A DNA stretch of 64,000 nt from an uncultured Candidatus Binatia bacterium (GTDB lineage Bacteria > Desulfobacterota > Binatia > UBA9968 > CAXXLF01). The DNA lies in assembly GCA_965218425.1 (NCBI GenBank), contig OZ244621.1, forward strand, positions 2,240,001-2,304,000, given 5' to 3'. Shown here piece after piece: positions 12,001 to 21,000 of the stretch. The position numbers were made by a program. Numbering within the stretch: the stretch's first letter is position 1; every line of letters begins with the position of its first letter.

Positions 12001-15000
12001 TCGAAATCGCGCCGCCGTATGATGAGATCATTTACTGAAATACGATAAAAAAAGGGGCCGGCCTCGATAGGAGCCGGCCCCCGGAGCACGATAGGATTTG
12101 AACATTTGCAGATATTTTACATCAAGCATCCAGCCCGGTCAAGAAAAAAGCGCGGGCTTATTTCATCATCCCCCCACTTTCTAATCGTCCGGGCATTGTA
12201 CCACAACCGGGCCGTCCATCAAGCTTCTTGGATCGCAGTGCCGTCCGCTAGAACTGGCGCACGAAGCGTAGTTCGAGGTTGGTGCGCTTGTAGTCGTAGA
12301 GTTGGGCGTTGGTGTCCCGCGCCTCGTTGGTCACCACCAGTTGCGGGCTGAAGCCGTAGGCGGTGAAGGCGCGGTTGTAGACCGAGGCGCGGAGAATGCG
12401 GGTCCTGTCCTCGCGCGACTCGCCGCCCGGCGTGAAAGGGGCCCAGCGGCCCTCGTAGTTCGTCCAGCGGAACTCGCCGCTGCCGCCCACGGTGAAGCCG
12501 AACGGCAGAGCCACCGTGGCGCCCAGCCGCCCCCAGCCGGTGATGTTCCGCCAGGTCATTCTCTCCGTGCGCTCTTTTGCATATCCGGCCGCCGCCTCGG
12601 CCCTGACGATGGGCGTTATCACCCATGCGCCGCTGAGCGACAGATCGAGCACCGAGCCGTCGAGGTAATTCTTTGTCCGGTAGTCGCGGCGGTGCCAGGA
12701 GGCCCGCCCTGTCAACGTTATCCGCCGGGTGAGCCGGCGCCTGGCTTCCAGGCGGGTGCCCAGGTCCAGGTAGTAGGGCTCGCCGCCGCGCCAGCGTTGG
12801 CGGACGTTCCCGAGCAGGCTGAGCTCGGTGTTGCGGTCCGCCAGCCAGCGCGGGCCGATATGTCCCGAAAGGAACGTCTGATCGAACCTTCCCCCCGAGT
12901 GCTCCTGCCGCGACACGTTGCCGCCCAGGCGTAGCCGGAGCCGCTCTCCCAGCGGGTGCTGGTACTCGCCCCCCCCCCACACGGAGAAGCCCACTCCCGA
13001 CTTCGCCAGGTCTTCCGCGTCGCGGATGAACTCGAACCCGCCTATGTTGATGGTGTCATCGTCCGAGACGGCGCCGATGTTGGTGCTCGGAGACACCGCT
13101 CCGCCGACGTGCACCGACCAGCGCTTGCGCGCCCGCATCGTTCTCAGGAAACGATTGACGTTGGCGACCACGGCCAGTGGCGGCTTCCCCGCCAGCACCC
13201 GCTCGAAGTGCCTGCGTGCCAGGCCGTCATCCCTCTTTAGGAAGAACACCCGCGCCAATTCGAGTCGCACCCGCACCAGGCCGGGCCGGCCGATCAATAT
13301 CGTGCGCAGCGCCCCGATGGCCTCGTCCAGGAGCGCCTTGCGGTCCTGGACGGCGATGCCCGGCCGCCGCGACGCCTGGGCCGCCGCCAGGCCCCGGAGG
13401 AAGAGGACGTCGGTCCGTTTCGGGTGGGCCTCGGCCAGGGGGCGGAGGACGTCCAGGGCCTCGTCGAACTTGCCGCTGTTTACCAGCTCCTTGGCCTCTT
13501 TCACGCCGGGGACGGCGGATGGCCGACCCGAAGCTTCTTCGGCGGCCTCGGCTGCCGCTATCGCAAATGGGGCGGACAGGAGAAACAGAGCCAGCGCCAG
13601 CGCATTGCAAAGGGGTTTGATCGTCGTCATCGTCTATCTTATCTTCCTTATCTTCCGGCGTGGAACGTCAGCGGGAAAAGGTTAAAAAAAGAGAGCAGCC
13701 CGATGGGACCGCCCTCTTTTTGAACGTTAGACCTCAAAGGTCATGATGCTCTCGGTCAGCTTATTGTTTCATCGCTCCGAACGCGCCCGCAACGTGCCCA
13801 TGGGAAGAATGGGCGTCGAACTCGCCGGCGACTGATCCTGGATGCTGATCATCACCTGTCGCGTCTGCGGCGGCATTGCCGAAGAATGCGCCGTTCCACG
13901 ACCCGGAGGTAACCGGGCTGCCGCCCACATTTCCCGCGCCCGACACCTCGCCGTCTTCGAAGGTAGTGGCTGTTAACTCGATCGTATTGAGCATTACCTT
14001 CCACGTACTGAGATCGTCGCCGTGCTCACCTTTGAAGCCATCAACCGTTCCGCTGATTCTATCATGCTGGCTGACAGCAATATCATCGCCGCCAAAGTTC
14101 GCCGTCAACTCGGCAGTCGCCGTGAACTCACCCTGGCGGATCGAGTCGAGGGAAGCGTTGGGGTTGAAAGTCTTCACCGCGTAGCGACCGGCCGCCGGGC
14201 CTTCATACGTCGCCGTGCCTTCTAGGGCAGTAACAGTACTACTGGTAAACGGCTCTGCGCCACCAAAGAATGTCTGGAAGGTTACGTCACCATCCTTGTC
14301 CACTATCGTCCAATATCCGAAACGCAGATAGTCCGTGTCCGGCACTGGAACGTTAGGCTCAGTCAGATCGTCTTTCCTAGTTGCTATCTGCTCATCGGTA
14401 TCACCAGCCTGAGACTCTCCATCTTCCCCAAGGTAGGCGGGGGTGAATGTCCATGCTCCCACTAAGGCAGCTGTGAACTCTCCTTTATCATCAGTTGTAG
14501 CCGTGCAAGTATCTCCTGTGCATGCATATTCGCCGTCCACACCGCCGAACGTGCCGTCGAACTTCCTCGGAGAAAAATCCTCGTCATCGGACTCGTAAGT
14601 GACCGTTGTAGTCGCCCCGCTAGTAGCAGCAATAAAATAATCTGCACTCACATGCTCGTTTAATTCATCAAAATTGCTTTCATTCAGTTCCAGCACGCCG
14701 TTAGTCACAGTGTCAATACCAGCATTGTCAGTGGGGTTATGGACATTACTAAACTTATCCATCGTGTCCTCGATGTTCGTATAGACGGTAGCGGTCTTCT
14801 TGCTGTCATCCTCATTCGCAACATCGGCTTTGTACCATCCACCGCCAACGTCGGAAGCGGAGCCTTTGGCTTCATCCATATCGGCTGTTGTATCGACCGT
14901 AACGGCGTCCCCCGTGCGTTTCGCCGTGGCAGTAATAGAGGTTATCGGGGCGGCCGCTCTCTCGCCTACACCCTTTATCGCCGCTGCATAGGGCATGGCG

Positions 15001-18000: not shown

Positions 18001-21000
18001 GCTTTGATATCCCAGCATCGGGCCGGACCATCTTGCCAGGCCATCGGGAGGACCTCCCGACAAGGCTCCCTGGAAGCCGGCCCATCCATTATAGAAACCC
18101 GGGGGTGTGCCAATCGTGTCCATCCACTCATCCGTGTACTTCTCAAAACCGGTCCCGAACGCAACGTGCTCCAGCGTCCCCGTGTAGCTGTCAACTACAT
18201 GGCGTCCCTGAGCGCCGTCCGTAAATGCAGCCGACTGCCGCGCGATCCGAACGAAGTCATAGTCCGCGTCCAGCCTCTCTTTGCTTCGCCAGTCCCATCC
18301 GGCAGTCGAGGCAAGCACACGCTCACGGGTCGTCGTCGTCCAGTCGCTCCACCCGCCCGATGCATCATCACGCGTCTCGCAAGCAGACCCCGTTCCGCAC
18401 CGGTACTCGTACCATCCGTCGTCGGCCGGATCTGACGCGCCACGCTGGTAGGATGTTCCGGCCATATAGTCGGCGGAGGTGATCACGTCCTCGCGGCTTG
18501 GCCGGTCGTCGTGCGTGGTCCCGAAGCTTGCCAGAAGACCGGCTTGCGGGTCATGGAGCGTTCCGGCGACATCCTCATGCCGAGGTCCGTAGAAGTCCGC
18601 CAAAAGGGTCGAACTCGCCCCCGTTCCGACGATTGCGTTGTCCAACAGATCGAACGGGTAGTGCAGACTTCCGCCGGCGAAGATCTCGGGGATACCGTCT
18701 GAGTAGACTGCGAGCGACGTGAAGCTCGCCGTACCGTCCAGGGTGCCGAGGTCCACCGCCAGGTTGGCGTCTCCGGTCACCGGCGGCAGCCACGCGCGGT
18801 CGAGTGCAGCGCCGATGAGTCCGCCGGCATAGCGGACCGTGCCATGTAGACCGGCCGCCGGATAGGACAGACGGAGGTCTCCGGCACTGCGATACCCGAA
18901 CACGTCGACCCCTGCCCGCAGCAAGTCGGTGACGTCGAGCTTATGCCAGGGATTGGCCGCGCGGTCGTAGTGCGGTTGCGGGTCCGCCAGCTTCACTTGC
19001 AGGTCGCGGGATACGGAGACCGTGAACCCTGCGTAATCGGTCCAGCCCGCAAGCCCGTAGGTTTCAGGTCGGTCGCTCTCTTCCCTGATAGTTAGACCAA
19101 GATCCGCGAGGAATGCGAAGTCGATGGCATGCGGCAGGAAGCTGGGCAATGCGGCATTGGAAGCACAATAGGCCATGACCGAGGCGCAGACGCCGCTATG
19201 GACGAAATCGTACTGTGAAGCCAGTGGATCGCGCTCGCCCTCCGTCCAGACACGTGGATTAGCACTGTCCTGGAAAGGCGCGGGGCCGCCATGGACGGCA
19301 ACCACGTTCGGACCGGTCCAGGCGCCTGTCGCCGCATCGCTATAGTCAGCATAGAGCACTGTTATGGCGTCACCCCACCATGCGCCCAGCACATGACCCA
19401 TCTCATGCGTCAGCGTTCGAAATAACTGGGCCTCACCGGCCTCCTGAAGATGACCCGTGTCGATCACAATCGAGCCGAAACGGGGCTGCCATGAATCGCC
19501 GGAAGCCTGAACACCGCTTCCCCCCCGGCCGGCAAAGCCATCGGTAAAAGGCTCATATCTGACATCTATCTCGAGTCCGGTGCTGATCTCGCCTTCCGAC
19601 CCGACTCGAACCTCGGTCCTGGGGGCGGAAGGATCTCCTCTAGAGAGCCAACCCTTTAAATCGCCGGCGGGCCGCTCCCATGTAGTCCAGGTATCTGCAA
19701 TCCTGTGGCTCCATGCCTTGCCTACCCGTTCGAGCATGGCGCGGAACGCCGGGTCATCTTGCATCAATGTTCCGGCCCCTGAGAGGTTGAAGTCTATCGA
19801 TAGGGTGTCGGCCGGGCCACCCGTCCAGCGCCCGTAGGTGACGCTACGGTGGGAGCCAAGGATCCGAACTTCGTCGTCGTCGTGAAGATCCGGGGCCACC
19901 AACCCCTCGCCCTGCGTCTGCGCCGCTGCGCGAAGCGCCTTCAGATCGGCCCCATCAGCCCCTGGCGCTGGGTTCAAAAATCCTTCAGTGTTCCTCCGAA
20001 TGTGCCGGTGTCCCCAATGGTCGAGCAGGTCGGCGGCCTCCGGGTTGTTGCGCGGACGCTCGGCCAGACTGAGACCCCCGGCTTTAGTCCCCGTCACGAC
20101 CACATTGCCGGAGGGCAACTGGCCTTCGTGCGCCGCACTACCGTCGGGCATATCGGCGTCGGGCACGGCGTTTGATTGGCTAATGGGAAGGTTCGGTTCC
20201 GGTGTCTGTCGGGTTTGAGGCAGAGCCGTGTCTGTTGGCATGGCGGGTCCGCCGGACGATGCCGGATCGTTGCCATGCTCGTCGGGCGGATCCGGCTCGA
20301 CCTTTACCTCGTCGGCTGCGAGACCGTAGCCCGTAGAGAGGGATGTGGCTTCCTGCGACTGCATGAAGCCAAGACCCGCCATTGCTAAATTGGGACTGCC
20401 GCCACCGTTACTGACGCAACCGGATAATGCCGGCACGATAAAAACGAGTATCGCGCAAGCCGGCAAGATTTTGCTGTGCGATTTGAAGATCATGGCCCCA
20501 CCTCCATGAATTTGTTCATCCTATCCACATTGCCAAGGACCATGTCAAACGTGTGTATTGGGCCGCCGCGTTAGCGGGCGCTTGCAGGGAGCCTCGATGT
20601 CCTGAACATCGTGCAGACGGCTTTCCTTAACCAAAGGACAGCCGGGTGCGGTTGCGAAGAATTTGCCTATTTTGCGAGTTTTGCAAGCTACTAAAAGGGC
20701 GGCGGGGTACCGGCTATATACGGCATTGAGGACCTTTATCTTTCACAGGTTGTGCGATCCTGTCGGTCGCCTTCCATATGCCCGGCATCTAGTTTATAAT
20801 GGCGGCGACGAAGGCCAGATAGCATCGTTGGCCGCTCTCATCAGATTGCTCCAATCGCGCAGGTTGTAGATGTCCTTCACATTATTGTTGGGCGCTGTTG
20901 TTTCGTTGGCTGGCGGGATTATCGCGTGGTATTTGAATGAACGCAGTAAGCTGAAGTGGGAAAAGCACATACGTAAAGAGGACACATACAGAGGCTTTTT

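Follow-up and report, generated by a model that had tools for sequence, protein, structure and literature searches.

Gene content of the Slam locus

The window, that is, the whole stretch of 64,000 nucleotides analysed here (contig OZ244621.1 of an uncultured Candidatus Binatia bacterium), contains a Slam gene and two large lipoprotein genes, all located where the initial annotation had placed them (Table 1). The 460-aa Slam protein consists of a signal peptide, a TPR-like N-terminal part and a DUF560 barrel (residues 171-460). It matches SlipAM (PF04575) over the entire profile (positions 1-288 of 288; E 3.1e-18, 66.8 bits, cut-off 22), and TPR_16 and TPR_Slam both fall under their own Pfam cut-offs. 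The gene is the sole copy in the genome, and the closest Slams (62-64% identity) come from Alphaproteobacteria-labelled records. As its GC content is 0.682 versus 0.540 for the genome (0.609 for the 1,108-aa lipoprotein gene), the Slam island of this Binatia genome looks horizontally acquired.

Table 1. Location of the features discussed, in window positions unless another sequence is named
Feature	Position	Strand	Basis
Terminator-like hairpin (11-bp stem, 9 GC pairs, T tail)	12053-12082	minus	consensus scan only
Slam/T11SS outer-membrane translocon gene, 460 aa	12248-13630	minus	PF04575 (SlipAM, DUF560)
755-aa lipoprotein gene, lipobox VAYGC-S	13761-16028	minus	translation, Pfam
TbpB-type barrel of the 755-aa lipoprotein, residues 603-754	13767-14222		Pfam
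DNA repeats encoding coiled-coil repeats of the 755-aa lipoprotein	15279-15883		
Tandem repeat, 182-bp unit, 2.8 copies, between both lipoprotein genes	16078-16594	not assigned (.)	
Sigma-70-like TTGACT-18-TAGATT, in two repeat copies	16521-16492; 16157-16128	minus	consensus scan
1,108-aa lipoprotein gene, putative Slam cargo with protease domain	17167-20493	minus	translation, Pfam, NCBIfam
Signal peptide and lipobox, residues 1-26 (...VPALSGC, +2 residue Val)	20416-20493	minus	read from translation
Pro/Gly/Ser/Ala-rich linker, residues 27-144 (~120)	20062-20415	minus	family alignment begins at residue 145
Metzincin-fold domain, residues 145-475 (~330)	19069-20061	minus	alignment, AlphaFold2, VIA-align, Foldseek
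HEMGH (H363, E364, H367)	19393-19407	minus	invariant in 48- and 40-row alignments
H432-S-G-V-C436-A-S-V-M440-A-Y-C443	19165-19200	minus	conservation in 69 domains
Handle/barrel module 1, residues 476-660	18514-19068	minus	family C-terminal HMM, E 2.2e-38
Handle/barrel module 2, residues 817-924, partial match	17722-18045	minus	family HMM, E 6.7e-11; TbpB_B_D at 892-923
Handle/barrel module 3, residues 948-1107, end ...GAAGKFDRDNLLGVFGAVRN	17173-17652	minus	family HMM, E 8.9e-28
Fourth metzincin-plus-barrel lipoprotein, other family	G000:C1 ~2,563.5 kb; L004:1486-3141	minus	structure comparison

The hairpin starts ~165 bp 3' of the Slam stop codon and, judging from its sequence, is likely to end the transcription unit. 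The 182-bp repeat is found nowhere else in the genome, has no match in Rfam, and sits inside a 1.1-kb gap which parts the gene of the 1,108-aa protein from the 755-aa gene and Slam; the sigma-70-like motifs of the repeat lie upstream of the 755-aa gene. The protease-bearing lipoprotein may have a transcript separate from that of the other two genes.

The 755-aa lipoprotein carries tandem coiled-coil repeats (ANARVMELDGMLATATADLGT), a middle part without assignment and a C-terminal TbpB-type barrel (TbpB_B_D E 6.4e-4, 20.7 bits, under the cut-off of 26), and no protease motif was found in it. Among the 26 related loci of the long subfamily described below, the ones in which such neighbours were counted, 11 have a second barrel lipoprotein next to the protease gene; the 755-aa protein groups with these second lipoproteins. 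It is a probable second Slam cargo.

Architecture of the 1,108-aa lipoprotein

The gene call for this protein in the protein collection (P0179) is only 865 aa long. The 1,108-aa frame (P0003) is preferable, since the alignment with homologs starts at residue 145 and these have a lipobox. Its own lipobox (LSGC-V), like that of the 755-aa protein, reads as reported initially, and Cys26 would be the lipidation site. The linker that follows has no family match and is presumed to be a flexible tether. Two paralogs are encoded elsewhere in the genome, as claimed: g01178 (G000:C1 1182333-1184381) and g01183 (G000:C1 1188012-1189607), with lipoboxes LSGC-A and ALGC-G and the motifs HEIGHV and HEVGHA. 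The 1,108-aa protein and g01178 are 34.8% identical over 535 aa, and g01178 and g01183 35% over 450 aa.

The domain following the linker has two parts, a catalytic core and, N-terminal to it, a conserved helix segment (NPxAxDLLDHW). A leishmanolysin-like fold had been proposed from a model of g01183; we repeated the comparison on the window's own protein and obtained the same result. The AlphaFold2 model of residues 145-475 (pLDDT 88.6, pTM 0.89) was compared with 48,161 chains using VIA-align, and leishmanolysin (GP63, family M8; 1lml_A) is the best match (Z 15.7, rmsd 3.3, 212 residues aligned), versus Z 8.7 for the next ones, MMP-9 and MMP-2, and at most 8.7 for other metzincins. All 50 matches listed have zincin-type folds; two are YbeY endoribonucleases, and most are zinc metallopeptidases. 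With Foldseek, 1lml is the single match at E <= 1e-3 (E 4.3e-5). In sequence profiles it is the top protease match, at marginal values (E 0.0019 and 0.011) and in the HExxH region only. No protease family of Pfam matches the window proteins, and none of Pfam or NCBIfam exceeds its cut-off on the 1,108-aa protein, Peptidase_M8 (PF01457) reaching 10.1 bits versus a cut-off of 21. Since all Pfam protease families stay under their cut-offs, the modelled domain appears to be a new metzincin family, M8-like in fold only.

Conservation of the proposed catalytic set is high among 69 full domains: H363 91%, E364 90%, H367 94% and H432 94%, together with C436 (96%), M440 (55 of the 69) and C443 (90%). 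In the alignments of 48 and 40 rows, H363, E364, H367, H432, C436 and M440 do not vary. Multi-domain family members have extra domains without HExxH, yet at least one domain per protein retains it. From this pattern, H363 and H367 would be two zinc ligands and E364 the catalytic glutamate, H432 is presumed to be the third ligand, M440 the Met-turn methionine, and C436/C443 a conserved cysteine pair. The HExxHxxGH motif described initially holds only for g01183 (HEVGHAIGH); the window protein reads HEMGHVLGAWW and thus has Trp instead of a zinc ligand at the canonical +10 position. Similarly, the MxMSYC stretch described initially is better written H-x-G-x-C-x-[SM]-[IVL]-M-[AS]-Y-C.

Leishmanolysin shares with the window protein an HExxH motif and a third His located far downstream rather than at +10, followed by the Met-turn; in leishmanolysin these are H264, H268, H334 and M345, and the equivalence of H432 and M440 is presumed. 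GP63 is a GPI-anchored surface protease, and the window protein would likewise be a lipid-anchored one, with a bacterial lipoprotein anchor. Identity between the two is only 15-18%, the match covers residues 107-373 of the leishmanolysin chain, whose C-terminal domain is replaced here by handle/barrel modules, and the Cys pair around the Met-turn is particular to the window protein's family.

One handle and one barrel had been described in the C-terminal part, where the family C-terminal HMM detects three modules. Their TbpB/fHbp type is borne out by TbpB_B_D (E 1.4e-9, over its own cut-off) and by the family profile, which matches TbpB 3hol_A at E 2.5e-6, plus LbpB and NHBA; NCBIfam slam_lipo reaches 39.6 bits on module 3 (residues 969-1107), under its cut-off of 80. 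The protein resembles Slam cargos (TbpB, LbpB, HpuA, fHbp, NHBA, hemophilin/HphA and PmSLP) in its N-terminal lipobox, in a C-terminal eight-stranded barrel ending G-x-F-[YF]-G...FG[GA]xR (Pfam TbpB_B_D), in repeated handle/barrel lobes (compare the bilobed TbpB) and in its adjoining DUF560/SlipAM gene. It differs from them by its three modules, by its metzincin domain of ~330 residues, which has a full catalytic set, where the cargos described in the excerpts of our sources are binding proteins, and by carriers labelled as many phyla, beyond Proteobacteria.

Distribution of the family and association with Slam

The family is a small one, with 171 representatives among 1.84 billion proteins, all annotated as hypothetical. 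They come from uncultured genomes labelled as about ten phyla, several of them from sponge-associated lineages. Alphaproteobacteria is the label of most carriers and the island of this genome looks acquired; the emphasis initially put on Binatia was misplaced. The barrel motif ends at least 70 of the 83 ORFs that contain the domain (77 loci), and a strict rule identifies a lipobox in at least 39 of the 62 full representatives.

Of the 77 loci, 12 have a Slam ORF no more than 10 kb away and the other 65 do not. Such proximity concerns 10 of 26 loci of the window protein's (long) subfamily versus 2 of 51 of the other subfamily, and Slam is located immediately upstream on the same strand in three loci (L021, L034 and L090). 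In the Binatia genome itself, the other three metzincin-barrel genes are all distant from Slam. At the genome level, PF04575 exceeds its cut-off in 45 of 50 further carriers; the five without a match are labelled Pseudomonadales (one), Alphaproteobacteria (one), Chloroflexota (one) and Bryobacterales (two). Among 40 relatives, Slam is present in 10 of 10 family-positive and 9 of 30 family-negative genomes, although these co-occurrence counts overstate the support, as related genomes are not independent.

Proposed function, alternatives and a second family

We consider this region a likely Slam (type 11 secretion) island, obtained by horizontal transfer, in which a single translocon gene is accompanied by the genes of two cargo lipoproteins, and the larger of these (1,108 aa) a likely surface zinc endopeptidase. 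This protein would be exported by Sec, lipidated on Cys26 and carried to the outer membrane via Lol; Slam would then recognise its TbpB-type barrel modules and move it to the cell surface. The tether would extend the endopeptidase outwards, with zinc held by the two histidines of HEMGH and the distal H432, E364 as general base and M440 in the Met-turn, a layout resembling that of leishmanolysin. Acting as binding lobes, as in TbpB, the three modules might select or hold the substrate. An excerpt of PMC9090332 describes unfolded TbpB as translocated by Slam1 and, by analogy, the protease may stay inactive until it is at the surface. It would most likely cleave extracellular proteins, either those of a host or those in the surrounding matrix; that it acts on matrix or immune proteins of a host, as initially suggested, is speculation. 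The initial interpretation found support in every part that could be tested in silico.

An active protease might also cut surface lipoproteins of the same bacterium, such as the 755-aa coiled-coil protein, and act as a sheddase releasing or remodelling Slam cargo. NalP of Neisseria cleaves LbpB and NHBA; unlike the window protein, it is a serine protease with type V export and has no TbpB-type barrel. According to excerpts of PMC5449769 and PMC13721041, NalP is a lipid-anchored surface lipoprotein involved in extracellular proteolysis, in a bacterium which also uses Slam. Both in the window and in the 11 related loci mentioned above, the protease gene does have another barrel lipoprotein as a neighbour. 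Still, we find a sheddase unlikely, as most loci have no nearby Slam, position is the sole tie between the protease and the 755-aa protein, and three binding-type modules on the protease itself suggest an external ligand.

The 65 loci without a nearby Slam, and the five carriers without a Slam match, would also fit with an outer-membrane lipoprotein protease facing the periplasm and serving envelope quality control, whose barrels share a fold with Slam substrates without any export role. This is improbable given that the best solved-structure matches to the tail are TbpB, LbpB, fHbp, HpuA, NHBA, hemophilin and PmSLP, which excerpts of our sources present as Slam/T11SS cargo (surface lipoproteins and hemophores), and given the Slam excess in carriers over related non-carriers and the three loci with Slam immediately upstream. 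Finally, a non-catalytic module, in which the metzincin fold serves as a lobe that scavenges zinc or binds host proteins, would suit nutrient capture by Slam cargos, all characterised members of which are binding proteins in the excerpts of PMC8406197, PMC12282271 and PMC13721041, and the loss of HExxH from some domains of multi-domain members; yet it is very improbable, as the catalytic Glu, needless for metal binding alone, is retained in 90% of domains and is invariant with the Met-turn region in both alignments, and no TonB-dependent receptor adjoins the protease gene in the window (nearest at 36308-38848).

If the surface endopeptidase reading is true, the 1,108-aa lipoprotein adds an enzyme to a set of Slam cargos that, to date, consists of binding proteins. 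No enzyme cargo is described for Slam/T11SS in the literature searched; the initial annotation likewise gave the characterised cargos as binding proteins.

The 1,108-aa protein and its two paralogs are not the full metzincin-barrel set of the genome, a fourth lipoprotein of another family having been overlooked. When the three window proteins were compared by BLASTP with the ORFs of the genome (E <= 1e-3), this fourth lipoprotein was not among the matches, and it is unrelated to the window family. Like the latter, it has a lipobox (LLLAGC-GGG), a metzincin-fold middle and a C-terminal Slam-type barrel, but its motif is HE[IL]xHA[LM]G, with a His 4-7 residues later, and its nearest folds are those of MMPs, serralysins and astacins instead of leishmanolysin. 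On a model of moderate quality (pLDDT 69.4), VIA-align gives Z 10.9 for alkaline protease, 10.8 for MMP-2 and 10.2 for astacin on residues ~172-400, and 14.8 for fHbp and 14.4 for NHBA on the tail. Of this second family, only 22 clusters were found among 5.8 billion.

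A predicted metzincin fold in the 1,108-aa lipoprotein

The 1,108-aa lipoprotein consists of a lipobox (LSGC|V, Cys26) after a hydrophobic segment, a Pro/Gly/Ser-rich stretch without relatives (residues 27-144), a conserved domain (residues 145-475) and C-terminal handle/barrel modules. Pfam and NCBIfam applied to the whole protein returned no protease model reaching significance. The sole protease-model match to the domain is Peptidase_M8 (E 0.31), on the HExxH helix, and PF01457 (peptidase family M8) scores 10.1 bits on this protein, below its cut-off of 21. Among 40 members of the family, that is, the lipoproteins sharing this domain, Peptidase_M8 matches of any kind were found in five (best E 0.02) and sub-threshold Peptidase_M10 matches in 23. 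When PDB chains were searched with the domain sequence itself, no match was obtained at E <= 10.

Structure prediction was more informative. The AlphaFold2 model of residues 145-490, built from a 48-row alignment (A1), has a mean pLDDT of 88.6 and a pTM of 0.89, and displays a metzincin fold. When it was compared with 48,161 representative chains using VIA-align, the best match was leishmanolysin (1lml_A, Z 15.7, rmsd 3.3 Å, 212 aligned residues, 18% identity), with an alignment that covers only residues 85-328 of the model and 107-373 of the chain. MMP-9 and MMP-2 (Z 8.7), MMP-12 (8.4), alkaline protease (8.0) and snapalysin (7.7) came next; the top six rows span Z 8.0-15.7, and the best 50 are all zincin-type folds, mostly zinc metallopeptidases, together with two YbeY endoribonucleases. 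In a Foldseek search of the full PDB, 1lml was the single match at E <= 1e-3 (E 4.3e-5, probability 1.00), the other listed rows being metzincins save three weak unrelated ones. Sequence profiles searched against PDB chains also retrieved 1lml_A as first protease, at E 0.0019 with A1 and 0.011 with a domain-only alignment (A4), in alignments of 80-100 residues ending at HExxHxxG, followed by many metzincins at E 0.01-0.2. The leishmanolysin-like fold that the initial annotation had claimed on g01183, a paralog encoded elsewhere in the genome, is thus reproduced on the window's own protein. Beyond the aligned part, the window protein carries handle/barrel modules where the three-domain leishmanolysin has its C-terminal domain. 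On the predicted model, the domain represents a new family of metzincins, with trypanosomatid GP63 as its closest relative in structure.

Residue conservation was counted in 69 full-length domains from a representative library: H363 (91%), E364 (90%), H367 (94%), G370 (84%), H432 (94%), C436 (96%), Y442 (86%), C443 (90%) and D464 (97%) are widely retained, and M440, within the context C-x-S-[IVL]-M-[AS]-Y-C, in 55 of the 69. H363, E364, H367 and H432 are invariant in both the 48-row and a 40-row alignment. The active-site helix motif HExxHxxG reads HEMGHVLG (363-370) in the window protein. Its canonical third ligand, a His or Asp three residues past the Gly, is replaced by Trp at position 373, and the canonical HExxHxxGxxH reading was rejected for the family. 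The HExxHxxGH motif proposed in the initial annotation therefore holds for g01183 alone (HEVGHAIGH), the one protein with a His so near, and fails for the window protein. H432 lies 65 residues past H367, and M440 eight residues further, a layout resembling that of the leishmanolysin zinc site (H264, H268 and H334, with Met M345). Judging from the spans of the structural alignment, the distal H432 would be the third zinc ligand, as in leishmanolysin, and M440 may be the methionine of the Met-turn. A chance occurrence of HExxH was rejected on the basis of five separated conserved positions together with the fold match.

Giant members (P0024, P0034, P0042, P0043 and a 1,480-aa frame on G032:C48) carry two to seven protease-like domain copies. 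HExxH is replaced in some of these copies, for example by QQIGH or RTLAY, which places degenerate and active-type domains in the same chain. In the first four of these multi-domain proteins, at least one copy retains the motif; at the sequence level, this pattern fits selection for a single active site in each protein.

Slam-type modules and genetic linkage to Slam

An HMM built on the C-termini of 26 short family members detects three handle/barrel copies in the 1,108-aa protein (see table). The Pfam model TbpB_B_D (38.9 bits, cut-off 26) detects modules 2 and 3, and the family profile matched TbpB in the PDB at 2.5e-6. The NCBIfam model slam_lipo (NF041636) reaches 39.6 bits on residues 969-1107, under its equivalog cut-off of 80. 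The same marks recur across the family: a barrel motif ends at least 70 of the 83 domain-bearing ORFs in 77 related genomic loci, and a strict rule for lipoboxes accepts at least 39 of 62 full representatives, several of those it missed having a visible lipobox or a truncated gene call.

The Slam gene lies on the same strand as the 1,108-aa gene, with 3.5 kb between them. In its 460-aa product, a signal peptide and a TPR-like N-terminal part precede a complete SlipAM/DUF560 barrel (PF04575, E 3.1e-18, 66.8 bits for a cut-off of 22, residues 171-460 on positions 1-288 of the 288 of the profile), and residues 44-142 give two sub-threshold matches, to TPR_16 (29.8 bits, cut-off 32.7) and TPR_Slam (18.2 bits, cut-off 35.2). 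PF04575 has no other match in this 4.46-Mb single-contig genome. Two paralogous small outer-membrane barrel genes (matches to OMP_b-brl, Surface_Ag_2 and Opacity) flank a segment of about 20 kb containing the Slam island, and the window also encodes a GRDB glycine/sarcosine/betaine reductase B-type protein (E 6e-129), together with NorB, a nitric oxide reductase of the quinol type.

Coordinates of the features discussed (along the window unless a residue range, locus or contig is named)
Feature	Coordinates	Strand	Remark
Small outer-membrane barrel gene	3520-4554	-	
HicA-like/HicB-like pair	10663-11418	-	
Terminator-like hairpin, strong	12053-12082		3' of Slam gene; consensus scan only
Slam gene	12248-13630	-	
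755-aa lipoprotein gene	13761-16028	-	
182-bp tandem repeat	16078-16594		2.8 copies, 87% matches
Promoter-like TTGACT-18-TAGATT	16521-16492, 16157-16128		in two 182-bp copies
72-aa ORF	16952-17170	-	
1,108-aa lipoprotein gene	17167-20493	-	
Handle/barrel module 1	residues 476-660		E 2e-38
Handle/barrel module 2	residues 817-924		E 7e-11
Handle/barrel module 3	residues 948-1107		E 9e-28
Small outer-membrane barrel gene	24056-25018	+	
NorB	29943-32258	-	
Further barrel lipoprotein	33037-34248	-	lipobox LVLSGC|F
Barrel fragment	35852-36166	-	
TonB-dependent receptor	36308-38848	-	
GRDB-type gene	46645-47685	-	
TrwC relaxase ORF	L018:3662-9202		
Phage-type integrase	L039:170-1420		
Group II intron reverse transcriptase	L023:1-1050		
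S8 subtilases	L021:13530-15758, L033:1129-3972		
g01178/g01183 locus (L095)	G000:C1 1176001-1195000		
551-aa lipoprotein	L004:1486-3141	-	also L096:7492-9147

We searched for Slam within 10 kb of family genes by an iterated HMM search, started from the window's Slam, of the ORFs of the 77 loci. Thirteen Slam ORFs were found in 12 loci (the match in L033 being weak), that is, in 10 of the 26 loci of the long subfamily, to which the window protein belongs, versus 2 of the 51 loci of the short subfamily. In L021, L034 and L090, Slam is located directly upstream on the same strand. As in the window, the protease gene has a second barrel lipoprotein next to it in 11 of the 26 long-subfamily loci, the set covered by the neighbour-gene comparison. 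For the loci without a clear adjacent Slam, together with L033 (50 loci), the carrier genomes were searched with PF04575, which scored above cut-off in 45, including genomes with the labels Nitrospinota, Nitrospirales, Tectimicrobiota/Entotheonella and Binatia, as well as one bin labelled Chloroflexi. Five gave no match: one each labelled Pseudomonadales, Alphaproteobacteria and Chloroflexota, and two labelled Bryobacterales. Among the 40 nearest relatives of the window's genome, Slam is present in all 10 carriers of the family versus 9 of the 30 non-carriers, a comparison that is descriptive and carries no test because related genomes are non-independent.

The gene of the 755-aa lipoprotein lies 130 bp upstream of Slam and encodes a lipobox (VAYGC|S) after a hydrophobic segment and a C-terminal TbpB-type barrel (TbpB_B_D, 20.7 bits, just under the Pfam cut-off of 26); a sequence search of the C-terminal 356 residues against the PDB gave a chance-level match only. 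Residues ~35-255 are made of about ten near-identical tandem coiled-coil repeats of 14 or 21 residues (ANARVMELDGMLATATADLGT), encoded by DNA units of 42 or 63 bp with 88-95% matches, and the array is likely to be length-variable. A 1.1-kb gap, which gave no match in Rfam, separates this gene from the 1,108-aa gene. It contains a tandem repeat of 182 bp without counterpart elsewhere in the genome. Two copies of this repeat bear a promoter-like sequence upstream of the 755-aa gene, and repeat copy number could tune expression. Of nine sequencing runs listed, eight contain this stretch of DNA in whole or in part, and no RNA run was among them. Elsewhere in the window, one more lipoprotein, which Slam may carry as well, shares 31% identity with the barrel part of the 755-aa protein. 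A barrel fragment is found near it, and a TonB-dependent receptor gene lies 2 kb away, a pairing like that of TbpB and TbpA.

Distribution of the family and origin of the island

When 1.84 billion cluster representatives were searched exhaustively with HMMER, the family profile retrieved 171 proteins at E <= 1e-3, 120 at E <= 1e-10 and 47 at E <= 1e-30. A word-indexed search of a 5.8-billion set retrieved 306 clusters within a length band of 609-1,939 aa; their names, where given, are 'hypothetical protein', and their precomputed Pfam domain is PF01298 alone. According to record titles, most of the 77 loci come from Alphaproteobacteria-labelled metagenome-assembled genomes. Further labels are Candidatus Binatia, Thermodesulfobacteriota, Nitrospinota, Nitrospirales/Nitrospira, Tectimicrobiota, Entotheonella, Bryobacterales, Chloroflexota, Gammaproteobacteria, Pseudomonadales, Immundisolibacterales, Paracoccaceae and Candidatus Poriferihabitaceae. 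These labels are the submitters' and bins may be mixed, but complete chromosomes account for several of the carriers. Entotheonella is a sponge symbiont and Poriferihabitaceae are reportedly named in a sponge genome note, so that a sponge-associated setting is a reasonable inference for the family.

A quick IQ-TREE phylogeny of 76 domains separates the two subfamilies (SH-aLRT 100), with phylum labels mixed in both. The window protein falls in a clade (support 97) with Nitrospinota-labelled and unlabelled rows, within a larger clade (support 98) of Alphaproteobacteria-, Tectimicrobiota- and Binatia-labelled rows at path lengths of 0.4-0.5.

Several observations point to acquisition by this genome. 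Its GC content is 0.540 (3-kb windows: sd 0.026, 95th percentile 0.585), for 0.682 in the Slam gene, 0.609 in the protease gene and 0.575 in the 755-aa gene. The domain was detected in none of four other genomes of the same taxonomic family and none of 18 from a second family of the order. The window's Slam is 62-64% identical to Alphaproteobacteria-labelled Slams and 55% to Binatia-labelled ones, and the protease domain is 72% identical to that of an Alphaproteobacteria-labelled record. The island was thus probably acquired horizontally; ancestral presence in the lineage is unlikely given its absence from these 4 and 18 relatives, the GC of 0.61-0.68 versus 0.54, and closest relatives bearing other phylum labels.

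Just beyond the island, which it flanks, lies a HicA-like/HicB-like pair, and within the island a 72-aa ORF that weakly matches Phd/YefM antitoxins (E 0.012) overlaps the protease gene at its stop codon. Such toxin-antitoxin remnants are typical of mobile islands. At related loci, where Pfam was run on the named ORFs only, we identified a TrwC relaxase ORF directly upstream of the family gene in L018 (with a clustered homolog in L020), a phage-type integrase in L039, a group II intron reverse transcriptase in L023, and S8 subtilases in L021 and L033. The subtilase ORFs end in ...GWRRDF or ...GWRTSF, like outer-membrane barrel endings. In the window's own genome, g01178 and g01183 are located 3.7 kb apart, without Slam, among restriction/modification-like genes (HSDR_N, GmrSD_C-like, DNA methylase), in what is a variable region.

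Proposed export route and a second metzincin-barrel family

From sequences and models, we infer as the most likely route one in which the 1,108-aa protein would be exported by Sec and lipidated, then carried by Lol to the outer membrane, where Slam would pass the unfolded chain through. The protein would then fold and load zinc outside the cell, and proteolysis would take place at the cell surface on targets bound by the barrel lobes. Rival readings are a sheddase acting on the cell's own surface, a protease facing the periplasm and a non-catalytic binder.

In PMC8406197, PMC5449769, PMC12282271 and PMC13721041, Slam/T11SS is placed in Proteobacteria, and the cargo described comprises adhesins, hemophores, metal- or host-protein-binding proteins and immune modulators. 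A literature search combining Slam/T11SS with protease, metzincin or leishmanolysin, outside of which most subscription journals lay, found no such cargo. The terms 'metallo', 'catalytic' and 'zinc' are absent regarding cargo from the two cargo-discovery papers (Tables S1 and S2 of PMC8406197, which lay outside the search, could list such proteins unremarked), and among the terms searched in the supplements of PMC12282271, peptidase families occur in neighbourhood co-occurrence lists only. A conserved family joining a metzincin catalytic set to a Slam barrel would add enzymes to the known cargo list. It also raises a practical question: in PMC9090332, Slam1 moved only unfolded TbpB in vitro, so could such a translocon deliver a zinc enzyme whose folding and metal loading take place outside the cell?

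The range of Slam looks wider than described, because Slam and the family occur together in complete Binatia-, Nitrospirales- and Entotheonella-labelled chromosomes. For symbiosis research, the family offers a candidate for a surface factor shared horizontally within lineages that are known from sponges. We put forward tentatively, with more doubt than confidence, the broader proposal that Slam/type 11 secretion exports enzymes too, well beyond Proteobacteria, and that a mobile cassette of Slam and surface-tethered GP63-like zinc proteases, accompanied by relaxases, integrases and group II introns, has spread among unrelated phyla sharing a sponge host, the proteases cutting host matrix or immune proteins as an independently arisen bacterial counterpart of the Leishmania surface protease.

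A TbpB_B_D scan of the genome provides a second example. At about 2,563.5 kb of the contig, it detected a 551-aa lipoprotein (lipobox LLLAGC|GGG) with HEILHALGLWSH in a metzincin-like domain and a C-terminal Slam-type barrel. Its family comprises 22 clusters; in a 20-row alignment, C17, H303, H307 and D355 are invariant, and E304 and H314 are conserved in at least 90% of rows. In a model of moderate quality (pLDDT 69.4), residues ~172-400 match alkaline protease (Z 10.9), MMP-2 (10.8), MMP-12 (10.5) and astacin (10.2), and the tail matches fHbp (Z 14.8) and NHBA (14.4), as well as hemophilin, HpuA, TbpB and PmSLP. Two unrelated metzincin families are therefore joined to a Slam-type barrel, which strengthens the idea of an enzyme class of Slam cargo. 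Near the 551-aa gene, we found an IS-type integrase (rve) and a Toprim/DUF7146 primase-like gene.
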